From contig AP026124.1 of assembly GCA_030295235.1 (NCBI GenBank), forward strand, positions 1,240,001-1,304,000: a stretch of DNA of 64,000 bases, written 5' to 3'. The stretch's first letter is position 1, and each line of letters starts with the position of its first letter. The notes beneath the pieces are model-generated. The model was not told the origin of the DNA. It did no database searches and worked only from the letters and a program-made list of their open reading frames with translations. Made by a program: the position numbers and the translations under genes. The DNA comes from Fistulifera solaris (lineage: Eukaryota). This document shows, in pieces, positions 38,515 through 46,043 of the stretch.

Positions 38515-39534
38515 TTACATTTCTAGAAAAGAATCGGCCTGTAAGGCTGTTCCATACAAAGCCATTTCTAATGTCACGGCCAATCGTAGTCCGCCGGCTG
38601 CTAGCCTCTGCTCGACAATAGGACGTCGCGTCTGCTGATATTCGTCAGATAAAACATCTCCGTCTACAACTTCAGATCCATCGACATTGCGATAAGCCCA
38701 CTCTATGGCATAATGGAACGATTCCTCGCCCCAAAGTGACGTGCATGCTTGACTACTTCCGATGGGACAAGCCAACCATTGACGAACGTAGTCCTTGTTC
38801 GTCTTCAACCAAGCTTGTAGAAATTCTTCAAACATGACGCGAGAGCCATGAAAGTCCCTGCCGATTGCCTTTTCGATGATATCATCGTCCCAAATACCGT
38901 GCAACGTTTTCGCGTGGGGGTGGCCTCCTCGAAGATGTCGCTGGAACTTACGGCGATCTTTACCACTGGATATGAGTTGATCTTCACCGTCAAAATGTAC
39001 ATGAATCGAGTTTCCGCCCCGATCTGTTGTACGAGAAGCATGCAAGGGTTGGTGAATGTCACCAACAAAGTGCGTGAGAAATTTGAGTGCTTCGACGGAA
39101 GCATTGTGATTCGATGTTGTCATCAATATGTTGGTGTAATTGACTATAGAACCAGCCACACAAAAGTCCTGAGGACAATCACGAACATAATCAAAGTGAC
39201 AGCGTTCGTCCAGCGTATCCTTTTCTCCAGCGGGACATCCCGACGGTATCAAGTCGTCGCGGACATCGATGTAATGCAAGGGAGCCGTCCATTGATAGTG
39301 CTGTGTGTGTCGAACGGCATCTGCCCAATCGGCTATAACCGCCAATGGAGAACATCCCTCGCATGCGGGAGGAAAAGTCGTGAACCCTAGCAAGTCGGAG
39401 ATTTTTGCTTGCGTGGCATTCGAAAGAAACGACCACGCTAGATTCGCCACGATTTCGTGTCCTTCTTTACCCCATGCGTGCGTCGTGGTAAAAATGGTGT
39501 GTGTACAAAGAAGCGTGACAAACAACTTCATCAT
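38515..39534 (-). CDS. Secreted S1/P1 nuclease
   Basis: Signal peptide then WGKEGH, WADAVR, LHYID, LKFLTHFVGDIHQPLH, DRGGN, LHGIWD and GGLRLA. Start at ATG 39534. Confidence 0.95.
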   Translation of the reverse strand: MMKLFVTLLCTHTIFTTTHAWGKEGHEIVANLAWSFLSNATQAKISDLLGFTTFPPACEGCSPLAVIADWADAVRHTQHYQWTAPLHYIDVRDDLIPSGCPAGEKDTLDERCHFDYVRDCPQDFCVAGSIVNYTNILMTTSNHNASVEALKFLTHFVGDIHQPLHASRTTDRGGNSIHVHFDGEDQLISSGKDRRKFQRHLRGGHPHAKTLHGIWDDDIIEKAIGRDFHGSRVMFEEFLQAWLKTNKDYVRQWLACPIGSSQACTSLWGEESFHYAIEWAYRNVDGSEVVDGDVLSDEYQQTRRPIVEQRLAAGGLRLAVTLEMALYGTALQADSFLEM

Positions 39535-39870
39535 GATTAGACAATAAAAGGATAGAAGTGTAAAGATTGGTTCAAAACACAAAGATCCTTTCACATCAGT
39601 GCAAGGAACAAGGAACGAACTTTTTTTTTCACGTCGCGTCGTCCGCGTCAACAAATTCTCACGTGACTGATATTTGTGGGACTCATCCTTCGCAAAAGGA
39701 GGTAGGACGTATAGGACGTACTTGTACGGGGTACCTCGTAGGGGACGGGAGGGACACGAGGACTTGTCGTCTGTCATTCATCCGAAGGGGGACAAATTCA
39801 GAGCCAATCGGCCGACATGGTCGTTTTCGCCATGATGGTTTTCGCTCTCACAAAAACGAAACCAAGAATC

Positions 39871-41031
39871 ATGACGGCCTCGATCGAGAACGAGAACGAG
39901 AACGACAACGATGGCTTTGAAGTAACCTCACGAAAGAAAGTCCCCAGAAAGAATCTCTACATCGGTAACCTCCCCACGCAGACCGATGAAGTTGATTTGT
40001 TGAGGCGGCTCCAACAATTCCTTCGAGTGGAATGTTCTCTCAAAGAGACGGACATGACCGATTTGCGGATTCATTCGTCGGCGCGAGCCTCTCATGCTTT
40101 GTTGCCGTGTGACAATCATTTGATGGATAAAATAATACAAAAACTTCATCGCAAAGATTTCCTAGGAAAGAAACTGGTAGTGCAAAAAGAACGAAAAAAG
40201 AAAGCATACGATACCGGCAGCACCTCGAACAACAAGCAAAAGGCATTCGGAACTTGGAGCCAATCCACTGTTGAACACGTTGGTCAGGTAGTAAAAGAAG
40301 AGATAGATCAGGCGGATGATCCTGTGAATACAGCCATTGCTGCAGCTGCTGCCGTTGGTGTCATGTCCTCCTTGTCGTTAAATCCTTTACTATCGCAACC
40401 GATGGATGATTTACTTGCCGATTATGGTGAACAGGATCTGAATTGGAAGCAGATGAATAATCCCACTAGTGACTCATTGCCAGAAGCGGCCCAACAAACA
40501 AGCGAAAGTCGACTGACTCAACTTGGAAAAGCACCGATACACATCCAATTCTATTCTTTTGGATATCATCACGGAGCACCCAATGAAGCACGAAACGGGT
40601 GGAGCCACGCGCAGCCACTTCCTGTGCATGACTGTCGCGACTTGGGAACGGTTCCGGGTCATCTCATGTGGCAAGATGGATTATCGGGTGTGGTCAAGCG
40701 TGAGTTGATGTGGAATACCGACATTCGAAATATGGCGAATGATTTGGCGGAACGCGTGGCCGACGCCGTGATGGACGCGATTAATGAAGGCGGGCACGGA
40801 TATGCCTTGCCATTGAAAATGCAAGTACTAGTAGCAAGTGAACTGGGAAGGCATCGCAGCGTTGTTTTTTGTGAGTTGGCAGCCACAGCATTAAGGAAAC
40901 GTTTGCGAGCCAATGAGAATAATCAATTTCGAGAACCCTGTTCGGTCGACACGTTTCATCGTGATTTACCAAATCGAACTGCTTTAAATGCGCCCTCGAA
41001 GAGTAACAAGAAGGATATCTTTGAAGACTAG
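39871..41031 (+). CDS. RRM protein fused to a RapZ/YhbJ C-terminal-like domain
   Basis: RNP2-like NLYIGNLP...GKKLVVQ. The C-terminal SFGYHHGAP, DCRDL, DGL, GRHRSVVFCE and HRDL match the RapZ C-terminal pattern. Confidence 0.75.
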   Translation: MTASIENENENDNDGFEVTSRKKVPRKNLYIGNLPTQTDEVDLLRRLQQFLRVECSLKETDMTDLRIHSSARASHALLPCDNHLMDKIIQKLHRKDFLGKKLVVQKERKKKAYDTGSTSNNKQKAFGTWSQSTVEHVGQVVKEEIDQADDPVNTAIAAAAAVGVMSSLSLNPLLSQPMDDLLADYGEQDLNWKQMNNPTSDSLPEAAQQTSESRLTQLGKAPIHIQFYSFGYHHGAPNEARNGWSHAQPLPVHDCRDLGTVPGHLMWQDGLSGVVKRELMWNTDIRNMANDLAERVADAVMDAINEGGHGYALPLKMQVLVASELGRHRSVVFCELAATALRKRLRANENNQFREPCSVDTFHRDLPNRTALNAPSKSNKKDIFED

Positions 41032-41561
41032 ACGATAAATATCGAGTCAGGGTTACACAATCATTACCTTCCATGGGCCTTTCGTGCAAGGCTCATGGAT
41101 ATAGAATATTTTTCTAAATAACGGTTTTTACGTCGATAACATTTACTTGCACTTCTCTAGTGACTCGTTAGTTGGGTCATGAATTGTCGGATGGTGAAAG
41201 GACGAGTTGTAACAGGAAATTGTTGTCGATGCATCTATAAAATAATAAAGCTATGATGTGCATCCTCTAAGCGTTAGCTTCCGTGCGTTATGTCCGTCTC
41301 ATTGTGTTCACTAATGTGACGTCATTTCTCTTGTCCCACGTGGAAGTCGGACACAATCATTTCCGCACATTTTTGACCCTTTCAATAAAAATGATCGTTC
41401 AGTCGGCAAACAAGCATTACTTTCATCTTAGACAATTAGCTTCATATCCAACACGCTTCTCAGCACCACTACAATAGCCTCGCGAGTATATCCAGGAAAG
41501 GACTTGTACGGATCCGAGATATCAGCGTCTGTTTGTTTGCCTCTTGAGAACGCTCAACAAA

Positions 41562-43189
41562 ATGTGGCTACCGAAGCGCGTCGCATTGCTAGCTGTCTTT
41601 GTCATGTCTCGCTTGGCAGCGGCTGAGAACTCTATAGAAGATGTAGAAGTAGATACAGTATCAGACTCCCTTTCCGTTAGTATAGATCAGGTTGTCGGAG
41701 GGTCGCCGAATTTGAGTAAAGAAAGTCTAGACATCGACATGTCATCGGAATCAAGTTCTCATGAAATTCATCCTGATGAACCCGAAGAAGATCAGCCATC
41801 GTCGAAACTGTCTACCGTTAATGACATTCAACCGGATTTTGTTTCGGAAATCATTACTGGATCTCCACAACACGAAGGGACGCAGGAAGGAAATACTCTT
41901 ACAGTTGTGTCAAGCGAGGACCAAAACACAACTAAGGAAAACGGTGCTTCATCCAAGAATCATATGGATTTTTCTGCCGAGTTTGACAGCGAAGAAGCCG
42001 ATTCAACTGAAGCAAAATGGGACGAAACTAAAACGAAAGTCGACGAAGTAAAAACGATGGAAGTGGATGAGGTTGCTGTTGAAGCAGGATTACAGATGCG
42101 TGGAGAAGTACAAGAAGCCATGACGAATGTGGATGATATCGGTCCGACTTCGGAAACGTACAATCAAGCTACTGCGAAAATCGATGATTCTGTGATCGAG
42201 ACTGGATCAACAGAGCGCGAGATGTGGGAGGATTCGGGCACGCAGGATGGTGAGGAAAACACTGCAGTAATGTCAGCAGATGATTCTGACCAGATGGGAA
42301 ATAGTACACTAAGAGAAAATATGAACCATACAGCAGCAGCTGTTCGTGATGAGGAAAAAGAAACACAGACACGTGAGGCTTCATTCCCTGTGGATGATAC
42401 ATCAGGAAGCATGGAAACGGAGACTCGATACCAGCCATATTGTAGAGTATGGGGTGTTTATCGAGCCGAATATCGTTATGCAAATTTATCGGTCCTCGCA
42501 CTTCTTTTCCAAGACTTGTTCCAGAAAGATGAAGCCGAAGCTGTGGCCATGTTGAAAAGTCTTGCATCCAGTGTTACAGTCCCAATGCATAATGTGTTGG
42601 ACAAAATACATAATGTGAGTGAAAATATAAGCGAAATGGCTGATTCTGTTGACAGAATAAAGAAATCTCCGAACTCTGAGTTTGTAGAAGGGCTGGATGA
42701 CATCGACAAATTCTTCGAAGGCGTGGATGTTCCTGATGAGTTGGACGTCGGTGCTGTTGGGTCGTCGTTACAAGAGGTGCTTATGGGTCAAGGTACGCAA
42801 ATAGTTATAAAAAGATTGAAGATGGGATTCGCTGCCATACAAGATGGGGTTATAACATTGAAGGTAACGGTTGTTTCAACCATAGAGGATATCGTATCCC
42901 GAAGAGATGAGTTTGCAACCAAGAAAGATGAATTTTTGCTTGCATTGAAAAAGGAAAAACGGCTATTATCGAAGGCATCGTGGACTTTAGAGACAGTGAC
43001 AACGAAAGGCGGAAAGAACTTCTTCATCAACTTGCTCGAGTGGGTTGGCGGTCTACTGTGACGACTGCGAATGCTCTTAAGGAGTTGGCCAAGCGCATAT
43101 TCGACGACGGTGATGATATTGAAGACATCTTAAAGGAGTCGACAGCAGTAGACGATGAAATTCAGCGTTTGATACGAAAAAATTCATAA
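41562..43189 (+). CDS. Secreted/ER acidic hypothetical protein
   Basis: Signal peptide, D/E-rich region and a FVEGLDDIDKFFEGVDVPDELDVGA block. A probable indel in the A-runs near 42950 links it to ORF 42980-43189. Confidence 0.65.
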
Positions 43190-43330: not shown

Positions 43331-46043
43331 TTAAGAGCTAGCCTCCTTGATAATCTGTTTGAAAGAATACGGAGAGAACCTGATACCATCAGCCTTGAAG
43401 AACTTATTTTGGAACTCAACCCAGTGCAACCGAAGAGCATGCAAAAAGCATTCTAGCACATCCATCATTAGTAGCACACCGAACGTTACACCAGCAAATA
43501 CACCGTAGCCAAGGAACGTCGCGAAGAAATTCATGTTCAATGTAGTCAACATTGCCTTCTCCCAAAAGACAGTGGCGAGCTCAGAGTGAGCCAAGGACAA
43601 CGCCCAGAGACGAAGATAAGATGCTGTGTTTGAAACCATGCCAAGCACGAACTCAATAGTTTCAATAGCTTGGTGAATCAGAATTTCGCCGAATCCATGT
43701 TCCTCGTGATCCTCGTGCTCTTCTTTGTCGCCATCGCCGTGATGAGCCGCGGAGTGACTTGCTTGTGACATCAAATACGGTTTCGCCAACAGCAGAATGG
43801 GGACTGAAGCAAATGCCAACATGAGAAGGATGTTTTGAACAGGACCTTGCCCAGCGTACATTGGTTCATCGACAACGCCAGGCATCAAAGCAATATTGAT
43901 CAGAGTCGTAATTAGGTTGGGAGGTTGGCAACCATCACCTGATCCTCCATAATTGAGTGGACAAAGCGTTGCTGTATTGTCGTTACCTGTGCAAGGGTAG
44001 CCCCATGGAGTGCACAATCCTGTATCAGACTCGCATTCGGTCCACACTCCATCGTAGTCCGGTGATCCCCAACCTTCACCTCCAGGAGCGAGACAAGTTG
44101 CCGAAAGCATTCGTGAATTCCAGTTGGCTGCCCACTTGTAAAAGATTAAAAAAGACCATGTAGACAAACAGTGATGAAGCAAAAACAACCATTGGTAAAA
44201 ACTCATACATGAAATCCAGCTTCTGCCCGAAGTAGAGTGCGTTTGCTCCCTTTAGCAGAGTGCCACCAAACATCTGTACGATGCCAAAGATGACAGAAAG
44301 CTTCATCTTGAATGAGTTGAAGAAAAGAAGTTCGTTGGAAGCAACATGCCACATTGGGTCGAGACCAAAAGGATAGACAGCTTCTTCAGAACCATAGCTG
44401 GCAGTCATTTCAGCAACGTCTCCCTCTTCAACACCATTCTCGGTGTCGAAAGACCAACGAGTACCGAAAAGGTTCAAACCTAGCGAAAACATATCGTTGT
44501 AAATCAATCCAGCATAAACAGCGAAGAAACCCATCATGGTAATCATGTAGCGACCAGTATGCATACCCTCAGCCATTTCCGAGAGCTTTGAGGTTTCATT
44601 GGTCTTTTCGTTCCAAAGCAAATAGAGTCCGGCGCAGAACAGGAACATACCGTGACCGACGTCTCCGTACATAACTCCGAACAAAAATGGGAATGTCGCT
44701 GCAGTAAACAATGCGGGGTTGGCTTCTCGGTAACGCGGAATACCGTAAGTATTGACGAACTCCTGGTATCCGTACGTGAACTTGTTTGTAATAAAATGCG
44801 TCGGCGGTGTTGGCCAAGGCTGTGCGACAAAGTCGACAAGGGAGGGCATGGCCAAGTCCATGTTCGAGTGGGCTCGTTCGACAGCATCGCGGACAGCGTC
44901 GTACGATTCGGAAATTACCCAACCTTCTCCACGCAGCATACCCGAAACATCGGCCTTGAACATGTTAAGCGAGTGATACACAGCTTTTTCGCGCAAAACA
45001 GTCCACGTCCAACGTTCAGCGTGTTTCGATAACATCTGGCAAAGACGGTATCGTGTATCCTGATTCTTGAGGAGAACAGTGCGCGAGTCAACCAGCTCTT
45101 GGGCGTTCTCCGACAGCATCTTTTCGACGGAAGCAGCATCGTCCATGTCCGGAAGCGAATAGCGATGGGCAGAAAATGCGTCGCAAATCTTCTTCAATTT
45201 GAGTTCGATGCTCTCACTCTTATAAAAAATAATAAAGACCGATTTATCTACCAAGAGTCCGGTTTCCGGGTCGGCTACAGGTTGTTCGATCGGGGCGAAT
45301 CGCACGTAGCAATTTCCGCGAGTTGCTCGAAAGATCATGCGCTCAAAGCGAGTCTTTTCCTCGGACATGATAACACCGGTGATCGACGAAAAGCGCATAT
45401 CTAGGTCAGGGCGGGGAGCACTATCATATTTGAGGAGTCCCTCTTCGTAATCTCCTCGTCCTGTGGTCATTTCCGATACAGCAAGCCGGGGAGCATCGCT
45501 TAGAAAAAAGCGACGAGCCTTTTCTAGCACTTCTTGCAACTCGATTTTCTCGTTGTACTCTGTAGTGAGCTTTTCTGAAAAGTTGATCAACTCTCGCAAT
45601 TGGGTCTCATATCCTTCAATTTCCGCTTCAAGACTCTCGAGCAACTGCGATCCACTCTTTTTCGATCCGTCAGCTGAACTGTATCTAGAAGAGTTAACGA
45701 AGTCGTCAACCGTTCCTGGTGACACAAGCTCAAGCTCGAATTTCTCGATCTCACCGACGAAAAAGCGCAACTTTCGTTCGAGTTCATCGCATCGTTTCAC
45801 GTAAGAAACATAACGACGCTGAAAGGGAGTCAAATCGGGGTTCAACTGCAAAAAAAAATATAATATAAGAAATCATTAAAGGAAAATTGCAAAGTAAATG
45901 TACTGAGATGAACAAGAGCTACGTACGTCTGTAAATTGAATAACACCAAGATTGCCAAGATCTGCGAGACAATCATGAGCGGCGTCTTCGTTCACAATTA
46001 AGGAGATATACTCCATTGGCTCGGAACGAAACCATCGAGCCAT
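43331..46043 (-). CDS. VHA-a: V-type H+-ATPase V0 subunit a, copy 2
   Basis: Exon 1 at 46043-45927, intron 45926-45846, same motifs as copy 1. One extra T near 44148-44153. Confidence 0.96.

Follow-up and report, generated by a model that had tools for sequence, protein, structure and literature searches.

In the Fistulifera solaris DNA analysed here (the window, a stretch of 64,000 nucleotides in whose numbering all coordinates are given), positions 39871..41031 (+) form one intron-free open reading frame (ORF) with no internal stop, translated into 386 aa. The ORF was recorded as a complete single-exon CDS (39871..41031, +; 386 aa plus stop), and its product is referred to as P0001. A relative of 382 aa from F. 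solaris, P0002, is 88% identical and has the same start Met. An in-frame upstream ATG at 39817 would add an extension of 18 codons (39817..39870, +), which is probably untranslated; the longer ORF is probably not in use, judging from the sequences, since the 18 residues are unrelated in P0002 though the remainder of the two proteins is 88% identical. A weak hint only on the start comes from runs X2 and X3, whose contigs begin at 39852 and 39854. Contigs from four runs of one study, whose RNA nature is a guess, lie on the ORF without joints. Those of run X1 cover genes and spacers alike and are DNA-like; those of X2-X4 cover parts of approximately 39852-41085 only, and X2 and X3 alone also touch the next gene slightly. 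In X2-X4 the pattern hints weakly at a transcript, these runs being RNA by guess. The neighbouring genes are of eukaryotic type and encode an S1/P1 nuclease, V-ATPase subunit a and LCM. All motifs quoted in the initial annotation of the locus (SFGYHHGAP, DCRDL, DGL, ASELGRHRSV and HRDL) were found in the 386-aa ORF.

The N-terminal RNA recognition motif (RRM) proposed in that annotation was recovered by fold and by profile. It occupies residues 27-106 (39949..40188, +) and was assigned as a divergent RRM from the AF2 fold, VIA superposition and profile matches. The AF2 model of these residues has the order beta-alpha-beta-beta-alpha-beta with pLDDT 84-98, and superposition of residues 24-112 by VIA gave Z of about 10-11 on U1A, SNF, raver1 and other RRMs (about 11 for residues 27-106). 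A profile made from 28 family members (alignment A1) matched solved RRMs with a whole-sequence E of 7.5e-15 and a domain E of 2e-6, the structures matched at that domain E being cS22 and U2AF65. Pfam RRM_1 (PF00076) reached 12.7 bits (E 0.12) on P0001, below the cut-off of 20.7, and a Pfam RRM match at E up to 0.01 was obtained in just 4/28 and 4/67 of the relatives scanned. The RRM of P0001 is thus confirmed as real, yet divergent. RNP2 is canonical, reading LYIGNL in P0001 and [YF]-[IV]-G-N-L across the family, and its aromatic residue Y30 is retained in 73 of about 88 occupied alignment rows; a UHM-type RRM was set aside because RNP2 is canonical. RNP1, which is usually K-G-F-G-F-V-x-F, is semi-degenerate: it reads A-S-H-A-L-L-P-C in P0001 and x-[CS]-H-A-L-V-x-C in the family, with His at position 3 (family H/F/Y) and Leu at position 5 (family L/F), so that position 5 of P0001 is without the usual aromatic. 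Among the structured parts of the family protein the RRM is conserved least, only 1 of its 80 columns reaching 90% or more. Its columns are covered by 89/116 aligned members; it is absent from the relatives P0189, P0192 and P0199, and the RNP2 of Triparma is degenerate (LYIPSL).

About 106 residues separate the RRM from the C-terminal domain and contain family-conserved motifs. A basic stretch, ERKKK, comes after beta-4 of the RRM and was recorded together with the family motif F-G-x-x-W (40189..40269, +). In alignment A2 the motif residues F126 and W129 reach 90% conservation or more; pLDDT is low in this region. Two helices are predicted by AF2 over 40270..40380 (+), at residues 135-147 and 151-165 with pLDDT 60-80. 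Of these, the second helix is hydrophobic and rich in Ala (residues 152-170), with a Kyte-Doolittle 19-residue maximum of 1.64 that is borderline for a transmembrane reading. The family alignment shows a further family-specific motif, P-[LM]-x-x-L-L-A-D-Y-G-E-Q-D-x-N-W (40393..40446, +), whose L181, G186 and D189 reach 90% conservation or more and which is found also in the RRM-less relatives P0189 and P0192.

The RapZ-like C-terminal domain claimed from the letters alone was borne out by profile and structural comparisons. The RapZ C-terminal domain (RapZ_C, PF22740; 40507..40974, +; residues 213-368) was identified by Pfam, hhalign, Foldseek and VIA. Pfam PapZ_C (PF22740) matched residues 224-344 with E 4.5e-7 and 30.5 bits, the gathering cut-off being 27. 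At E up to 0.01 the same model matched 27/28 and 64/67 of the family members scanned, not all of them with at least 27 bits. Alignment of the family with E. coli RapZ by hhalign gave a probability of 96.5% and E 9e-10, and profile-profile comparison of the family C-terminal domain (CTD) with 30 Pseudomonadota RapZ_C sequences gave 99.2% and E 2.8e-19; a single-sequence phmmer search of the CTD against PDB gave no relevant match, so that profiles were needed. Foldseek of the AF2 model against PDB placed RapZ on top, and VIA superposed the P0001 model on 5o5q_A with Z 15.8 and rmsd 2.0 A over 124 residues at 27% identity. The CTD-only model (pLDDT 94.5), used in an unbiased VIA scan of 48,161 chains, matched RapZ with Z 15.7 and 15.6 (rmsd 1.9-2.0 A), the next match having Z 6.3. 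Residues 213-368 are thus confirmed as a RapZ_C domain, with similarity well past chance. In this domain 38/154 columns are at least 90% conserved versus 1/80 in the RRM; judged from this constraint in the alignment, the RapZ-type domain is the functional core of the family. A homodimer prediction for two copies of residues 170-372, in which the alignment was not used, scored 0.01 against a mark of 0.32, a value that speaks neither for nor against a dimer. The C-terminal tail, R-T-A-L-N-A-P-S-K-S-N-K-K-D-I-F-E-D, holds 4 K/R and 3 D/E, and the tail ends acidic in the family, often with [DE]-W.

The motif S-F-G-Y-H-H-G-A-P (40555..40581, +) aligns by hhalign with E. coli S166-F-G-F-K-H-G-I-P, and the family shows little or no variation in its S, F and G. 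The phosphate-binding loop S323-E-L-G-R-H-R-S330 (40837..40860, +) aligns with E. coli C247-T-G-G-K-H-R-S254. Eight residues (S323, G326, H328, R329, E335, R342, R346 and H363) are invariant in 125/125 sequences, including those of Triparma and the RRM-less forms. The initial annotation had read the conserved Cys as Ser, correctly: E. coli C247 aligns with S323, and this position is Ser in 125/125 family members. That Ser is invariant rather than freely varying argues that the loop is in use. Position 324 (E. coli T248) is Glu in 84 and Asp in 21 members, together 105/116. E. coli H190 aligns with G263 of P0001; the position is His in 31/116 family members and also varies in bacteria (H 18, Y 8 and F 3 among 29 Pseudomonadota read). 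Of the E. coli pocket residues G250, H252 and R253 alone are kept, as G326, H328 and R329. In the bacterial comparison set, 30 RapZ_C sequences from a single phylum, Pseudomonadota, the loop is C-T-G-G-x-H-R-S in 30/30, as is G-C-T-G-G. The cradle of the family is a fixed variant, S-[E/D]-x-G-R-H-R-S, in place of the bacterial C-T-G-G-x-H-R-S, in which the strand-loop-helix cradle (G326, H328, R329 and S330) and the SFG and D-x-R motifs are retained.

According to passages of the papers on E. coli RapZ, the pocket accommodates sulphate or malonate as well as the backbone phosphates of RNA and has been proposed as the site for glucosamine-6-phosphate (GlcN6P) (PMC5737377, PMC9841335), the CTD alone binds GlcN6P by SPR (PMC7073468), and across bacteria the pocket is conserved and the RNA-binding tail is not (PMC7073468). 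Passages of PMC9841335 also report that C247S, T248D and H190A each kill activity. Since C247S and T248D each abolish the activity of E. coli RapZ, the pocket of P0001, by analogy, probably does not work in the E. coli fashion.

The phyletic survey of the RRM + RapZ_C architecture placed its named members in diatoms and Triparma. For P0001, 117 homologue clusters were found, and the family has 188 representatives among 1.84 billion proteins at E up to 0.001; named members among the best 150 of the 188 are all diatoms or Triparma (Parmales). Triparma proteins align over the full length with E 6e-31. A profile search returned diatom-type proteins exclusively in the best 120 of 359 matches, and a CTD-only search returned 6 diatom fragments. 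Family-specific peptide patterns, searched in 185,579 prokaryote species, gave 253 pattern matches with no relative among them. To judge from these alignments, the architecture is old and common to diatoms and sister algae. No paper on RRM + RapZ_C proteins of diatoms was found in our literature searches, and this protein family of diatoms and sister algae is unstudied.

The initial annotation described the P-loop domain as replaced by an RRM. Its absence stands, as PF03668 (the RapZ P-loop N-domain with Walker motifs) was found neither in P0001 nor in the 28 + 67 relatives scanned. The implied descent from a full-length RapZ does not stand in the same way. In the Atlas, the protein-language-model clusters lying closest to the diatom CTD are eukaryotic PapZ_C proteins of 189-257 aa, mostly from Ascomycota (scores 0.95, 0.92 and 0.91), and RapZ_C-only proteins thus appear common in eukaryotes, fungi included. 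Gain of an RRM by a RapZ_C-only protein is therefore at least as likely as descent from full-length RapZ. Bacterial RapZ_C is also joined to kinase domains in APH + PapZ_C clusters of the Atlas, which is a lead only.

CxxGxxR(S/T) is the signature of Cys-based phosphatases; loops of this type with Cys changed to Ser bind substrate without turnover, and STYX is a non-catalytic relative of these enzymes. Against this background the reading that we prefer, tentatively and at somewhat less than an even chance for the whole, is that P0001 couples a phosphate ligand, held in the RapZ_C cradle without thiol chemistry, to RNA tethering by the RRM. The product would be soluble, and its N-terminus has no obvious targeting peptide. 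Its cradle would bind a ligand that carries phosphate, be it a phospho-metabolite or an RNA phosphate, GlcN6P being one candidate among sugar phosphates, and binding would proceed as in the Cys-to-Ser phosphatase loops. The RRM, with canonical RNP2, weakened RNP1 and fast evolution, may tether the RapZ_C module to RNA together with the adjoining basic stretch, so that occupancy of the RapZ_C pocket would be coupled to the RNA-bound state. Enterobacterial RapZ would be of comparable design, achieved by a basic RNA-binding tail added to the same domain. The existence of RRM-less relatives and the degenerate RNP2 of Triparma indicate that RNA tethering would not be essential to the family core. 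Further observations count against the preferred reading: the RRM lies under the Pfam cut-off in P0001 and gave no match at E up to 0.01 in 24/28 and 63/67 relatives, RNP1 of P0001 lacks the usual aromatic at position 5, and three pocket positions (Ser, Glu/Asp and Gly) are in states, or equivalents of states, that inactivate E. coli RapZ in passages of the work cited above. A stronger form of the proposal, in which the Ser-type cradle would read a phospho-metabolite or phosphorylated RNA end and the fused RRM would steer the fate of specific RNAs, making P0001 a metabolite-gated RNA-binding protein and an independently assembled eukaryotic counterpart of RapZ riboregulation, is unlikely, with a small but real share of the probability. 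The phosphosugar-responsive RNA regulator of the initial annotation thus survives in part: a phosphate-ligand-binding, RNA-associated protein is plausible on sequence grounds, and retention of the E. coli GlcN6P pocket is not upheld, as C247, T248 and H190 are changed.

An origin of the ORF as a chance reading frame, as a pseudogene or from contaminating bacterial DNA is refuted and has next to no probability, given the 117 homologue clusters with named members in diatoms and Triparma alone, the strong constraint, the eukaryotic-type neighbours and the failure of family-specific peptide patterns to find the family in 185,579 prokaryote species. Nor is it probable that P0001 is a RapZ-like adaptor whose RapZ_C pocket senses GlcN6P and which delivers a specific regulatory RNA to a ribonuclease; this we consider very unlikely. 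The fold is identical in type, H252, R253 and G250 are retained, an RNA-binding-type domain (the RRM) is present, and in passages of PMC7073468 and PMC9841335 the E. coli RapZ CTD alone binds both GlcN6P and RNA. Against this adaptor role, the family has fixed the changes of C247 to Ser and of T248 to Glu/Asp, and H190 aligns with Gly in P0001, a remodelled pocket that, since such changes kill E. coli RapZ, makes the same ligand unlikely; the P-loop domain required for the RapZ tetramer is missing; and passages of PMC7073468 describe the RNA-binding tail, GlmY/GlmZ and partnership with RNase E as traits of Enterobacteriaceae. The basic-tail route of RNA binding is likewise limited to Enterobacteriaceae in the passages of Khan et al. 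(2020, PMC7073468), so the RNA binding of E. coli RapZ_C is not transferable to the diatom.

A different reading, in which the RRM does not bind RNA and serves as a protein-interaction module while the RapZ_C core is metabolic or signalling, as proposed for non-enterobacterial RapZ, is not likely, though it keeps an appreciable minority of the probability. It accords with the low conservation of the RRM columns (1/80 at least 90% conserved), the loss of the RRM in some relatives and its degeneration in Triparma, scores below the Pfam cut-off in most members, and the pairing of bacterial RapZ_C with sugar-kinase-type domains in Atlas clusters; the canonical RNP2 with Y30 kept, the basic stretch after beta-4 and coverage of the RRM columns by 89/116 aligned members speak for RNA binding instead. 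Alternatively RapZ_C may be an enzyme, for instance a phosphatase or phosphotransferase whose substrate is a sugar phosphate or a phosphorylated RNA end, with Ser323 as nucleophile and the RRM recruiting the RNA substrate, which we regard as quite improbable. Here C-x-x-G-x-x-R-S, present in 30/30 Pseudomonadota, is the Cys-phosphatase signature, and around the loop there are many His, Arg, Ser, Glu and Asp residues that never vary; Cys-to-Ser normally ends catalysis in Cys-based phosphatases. Phosphatases, including a baculovirus RNA 5'-phosphatase, were 17 of the 50 matches listed in the unbiased fold scan, at Z 3.5-4.5, which is weak and in the range of common arrangements. Passages of Islam et al. 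(PMC9841335) state that the C247 thiol 'may fulfil a specialised catalytic function' and describe GlcN6P density that looks chemically transformed, and a reference title in PMC7073468 names ATPase and phosphatase activity for Xanthomonas HpaP; against this, the consulted passages of the RapZ literature demonstrate no RapZ_C catalysis. Khan et al., in passages of PMC7073468, propose metabolite binding and signalling, and not RNA binding, as the primordial RapZ function, which favours the protein-interaction reading of the RRM.

Diatoms are major primary producers in which the coupling of metabolism to RNA control is little known, and this family joins a eukaryotic RNA-binding domain to one whose known roles are confined to amino-sugar sensing and riboregulation in bacteria. 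P0001 is a defined and easily expressed target for learning which partners RapZ_C binds in organisms other than Enterobacteriaceae. The part that the loop Cys and Thr play in E. coli RapZ is unexplained, and their fixed change to Ser and Glu in this family amounts to a natural experiment on both residues. If the RapZ loop is a CxxGxxRS phosphatase-type cradle, this could redirect work on bacterial RapZ/YvcJ too, and the metabolite-gated reading, if true, would expose RapZ_C as a phosphate reader derived from a phosphatase loop. A literature search joining RapZ, phosphatase and CX5R found no paper.

Compared with known systems, P0001 is closest to the CTD of E. coli RapZ (YhbJ; 5O5S, 5O5O/5O5Q, 8B0I/8B0J, PF22740), on which it superposes as the same fold with Z 15.6-15.8 and rmsd of about 2.0 A over 121-124 residues. 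The two proteins have in common SFG, D-x-R, G-x-H-R-S-V at the start of a helix and a terminal H-R-[DT]-L, E. coli RapZ ending in HRTL and not, as first annotated, in HRDL. E. coli RapZ has a P-loop N-domain where P0001 has an RRM and a conserved linker, its loop Cys and Thr are Ser and Glu/Asp in the diatom family, and its H190 is not conserved; the diatom family also has two insertions of its own, one (G-W-S-H-A-Q-P-L) following the SFG strand and the other (G-G-H-G-Y) preceding the loop strand. E. coli RapZ also acts in the context of GlmY/GlmZ and RNase E, whereas P0001 is eukaryotic and without that context. The RapZ_C-only proteins of fungi and protists and the bacterial APH-kinase + RapZ_C fusions, all unstudied and known here as database clusters only, carry the same Pfam domain and, like P0001, no RapZ NTPase, but unlike P0001 they have no RRM. 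Canonical RRM proteins (the RRMs of U1A, SNF, plastid cS22 and U2AF65) share the fold and the RNP2 type with P0001 and differ in RNP1, and P0001 scores under the Pfam cut-off for their domain. Cys-based phosphatases have a strand-loop-helix phosphate cradle like that of RapZ_C, and the bacterial RapZ loop C-T-G-G-x-H-R-S fits their signature; they carry the catalytic Cys in this loop, whereas P0001 has the Cys-to-Ser form, S-E-L-G-R-H-R-S.

The gene was identified as an uninterrupted open reading frame of 386 codons plus a stop, encoding an RRM-RapZ_C protein on the forward strand at window positions 39871-41031. An alternative upstream ATG at 39817 gives a longer frame with 18 extra residues. 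These residues are not matched in the relative P0002, which is 88% identical and has an unrelated upstream extension of its own. The annotated protein P0003 of Fistulifera solaris (382 aa) has the same Met-Thr-Ala start as the ORF from 39871, and 39871 was therefore taken as the start. The G+C content is about 45% throughout, and the adjoining ORFs are of eukaryote type, encoding an S1/P1 nuclease, V-ATPase subunit a and a leucine carboxyl methyltransferase. The nuclease gene (38515-39777, reverse strand; Pfam E 2.7e-61) and the RRM-RapZ_C gene are arranged head-to-head, with just 93 bases between the two ORF ends; its true start is probably further inside the ORF, at a hydrophobic M-M-K-L-F-V stretch. 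V-ATPase subunit a (43331-45851, reverse strand) is split into two overlapping ORFs, 43331-44206 and 44076-45851, which suggests a short intron or a frameshift. A forward-strand ORF of 505 aa at 41544-43061 is acidic and rich in Ser, Glu and Asp, and a Pfam search of it returned no family; its 3' end is partly covered by contigs of sequencing runs X2 and X3. Among runs X1-X4, none is on record as RNA. Contigs of X1 cover genes and spacers alike; those of X2-X4 cover only parts of approximately 39852-41085, with X2 and X3 also covering a short stretch of the next gene, and contain 0 joints, a weak hint of an intron-free transcript. One relative, P0267, is listed in the database under an MMETSP transcript label. 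An artefactual origin of the ORF is excluded.

The C-terminal part of the protein is a RapZ C-terminal domain. The motifs from which the initial annotation had proposed it are all present in the ORF translation, and both profile comparison and superposition on E. coli RapZ upheld the proposal. Pfam PapZ_C (PF22740) was matched by residues 224-344 (E 4.5e-7), the score of 30.5 bits exceeding the curated cut-off of 27. Built from 116 family members, a profile aligned with residues 158-283 of E. coli RapZ (probability 96.5%, E 9e-10), and the family C-terminal profile aligned over 126 columns with 30 RapZ_C domains taken from an even sample of Pseudomonadota genomes (99.2%, E 2.8e-19). AlphaFold2 modelled the domain with a pLDDT of 95-98 within the whole protein, and with a pLDDT of 94.5 and pTM of 0.89 when modelled alone. 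The top Foldseek match of the model was E. coli RapZ, on which it was superposed by VIA-align with Z 15.8 and rmsd 2.0 A over 124 residues at 27% identity. A scan of 48,161 representative chains, made independently of Foldseek, gave the two RapZ entries at Z 15.7 and 15.6, the runner-up being a phosphofructokinase at Z 6.3; the same ordering of fold matches is reported for E. coli RapZ itself by Gonzalez et al. (PMC5737377).

At the N-terminus lies an RRM, as the initial annotation had it; the domain is divergent and falls under the Pfam cut-off: RRM_1 scored E 0.12 in the diatom protein and was found in 4/28 and 4/67 relatives (E up to 0.01). A profile built from 28 family members matched solved RRMs, among them plastid cS22, U2AF65 and SR proteins, at E values as low as 7.5e-15 for the whole sequence and of 2e-6 for a single domain. 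Residues 27-106 form a beta-alpha-beta-beta-alpha-beta fold (AlphaFold2, pLDDT 84-98) that superposes at Z of about 10-11 on RRMs such as those of U1A, SNF and raver1. The linker of 106 residues between the domains is not random: it holds a basic stretch and two helices as well as the motifs F-G-x-x-W and L-L-A-D-Y-G-E-Q-D-x-N-W, the latter strongly conserved. An Ala-rich hydrophobic linker helix (window 40324-40380, residues 152-170) is of borderline hydropathy, 1.64 over 19 residues, and might pack against the C-terminal domain, serve in self-association or contact a membrane.

A word-indexed search recovered 117 homologue clusters. Exhaustive HMMER searching of 1.84 billion representatives with the C-terminal profile yielded no more than 188 proteins with E of 0.001 or below; the family is accordingly a compact clade, from which bacterial RapZ is not reached at this threshold. 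Among the matches listed, the named members were diatoms (Fistulifera solaris, Seminavis robusta, Mayamaea pseudoterrestris, Thalassiosira profunda, Amphora coffeaeformis and Nitzschia sp.) and, as the sole named non-diatoms, three Triparma species (Parmales, which are sister to diatoms), whose proteins align full-length (E 6e-31) but have a degenerate RNP2 motif. The RapZ P-loop N-domain, which the initial annotation had described as replaced by the RRM, was found in none of the 28 + 67 family members scanned. No relative was detected with family-specific peptide patterns in prokaryotes (one genome each for 185,579 species). In the ESM Atlas, the protein-language-model neighbours of the domain were eukaryotic PapZ_C-only clusters, most often from Ascomycota (scores 0.95, 0.92 and 0.91), and its structural neighbours included bacterial RapZ, stand-alone RapZ_C and APH-kinase + RapZ_C fusions.

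RRM columns are covered by 89 of the 116 aligned members. The relatives P0189, P0192 and P0199 keep the linker motifs (F-G-x-x-W and Y-G-E) and the C-terminal domain with the RRM absent; in one cluster of such relatives the 10 members share a length of 316 aa, and the RRM-less form is therefore probably real and not a truncated gene model. At least 90% conservation was seen at 38/154 columns of RapZ_C against 1/80 of the RRM (116 sequences), and S323, G326, H328, R329, E335, R342, R346 and H363 are invariant in 125 sequences, with Triparma and RRM-less forms added. On these alignments, the RapZ_C domain is the functional core of the family and the RRM a fast-evolving, occasionally dispensable accessory. 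An acidic-Trp C-terminus, roughly [LFM]-[EA]-[GS]-[DE]-W, occurs in 68/125 members (alignment A5) and possibly serves as a short docking motif; the C-terminus of the window protein (40975-41028) and its nearest relatives is I-F-E-D, without Trp.

According to two reports (PMC5737377, PMC9841335), the E. coli pocket is formed by the H190, H252 and R253 side chains and the T248 and G249 backbone with C247 alongside, holds sulphate or malonate, touches GlmZ backbone phosphates and is the proposed GlcN6P site. Each of H190A, G249W, R253A, T248D, C247A, C247S and K170A abolished activity (PMC9841335). The bacterial loop G-C-T-G-G-x-H-R-S-V was present in 30/30 Pseudomonadota domains sampled; the H190 position varied more (H 18, Y 8, F 3; 29 read). 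The diatom family retains G-x-H-R-S-V, but the bacterial Cys is replaced by Ser (Ser323) in 125/125 members, a change that the initial annotation had noted for the single protein; Thr is replaced by Glu in 84/116 and Asp in 21/116, G249 by a variable residue, and H190 aligns with a variable position (Gly in the diatom protein, His in 31/116) followed by Y or H. Two fixed states of the family, Ser for Cys and Glu/Asp for Thr, are exactly substitutions that inactivate E. coli RapZ. Judged by its invariant Ser, the pocket is clearly in use in the diatom family, and its sequence indicates that it is not the E. coli pocket.

With architecture, fold, a retained phosphate cradle in a fixed variant state, and the family's age and spread established, the most likely mechanism, proposed tentatively, is that the cradle binds a phosphate-bearing ligand while the RRM and adjacent basic stretch keep the protein on RNA, ligand state then being coupled to RNA association. 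In Enterobacteriaceae, a comparable outcome is reached through a basic RNA-binding tail on the same domain; this tail is restricted to that family and the pocket is conserved across bacteria (Khan et al., PMC7073468). The version of the initial annotation, GlcN6P sensing with delivery to a nuclease, is very unlikely, because the pocket is remodelled, E. coli recognition is highly specific (same source) and the partners are enterobacterial.

As to an enzyme acting on RNA or sugar phosphates, the authors of PMC9841335 remark that the thiol of C247 might have a specialised role in catalysis and that the GlcN6P density looks chemically transformed; such a role for RapZ_C in the diatom protein is rather improbable. 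RNP2 is canonical ([YF]-[IV]-G-N-L; Y30 in 73 rows) and RNP1 is weakened (H/F/Y at position 3, L/F at position 5). That the protein has a role unrelated to RNA, with the RRM as a protein-binding module, is unlikely.

Databases already carry family proteins under the automatic names 'RapZ C-terminal domain-containing protein' and 'RRM domain-containing protein'. A literature search, with most subscription journals outside its reach, found no paper on diatom RRM-RapZ_C proteins, and nothing relevant for PF22740 or for RapZ with diatoms, algae, Phaeodactylum, Thalassiosira, or eukaryotes and RRM; papers on RapZ and fungi included none on fungal proteins, by title and abstract. RapZ_C-only proteins appear widespread in eukaryotes, and eukaryotic occurrence is therefore not unique; the novelty lies in the fusion to an RRM, the age of that fusion and the fixed Ser/Glu loop.

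The bacterial loop C-T-G-G-x-H-R-S (E. coli residues 247-254, L001:4116-4967) fits CxxGxxR(S/T), the signature of Cys-based phosphatases, in 30/30 Pseudomonadota sampled (loci L083-L112). A literature search for RapZ, phosphatase and CX5R returned no paper that combines them. Cys-based phosphatases made up 17/50 among the matches listed when the diatom domain was compared with 48,161 chains (Z 3.5-4.5, possibly a common arrangement), including several DUSPs, PRL, Slingshot, STYX, baculovirus RNA 5'-phosphatase, PtpB and Ci-VSP. As in these phosphatases, the RapZ_C loop lies in the models where a strand leads into the N-terminus of a helix. Should the resemblance prove real, the diatom loop S-x-x-G-x-x-R-S would, as a lead, be the natural counterpart of a Cys-to-Ser form that binds but does not turn over.
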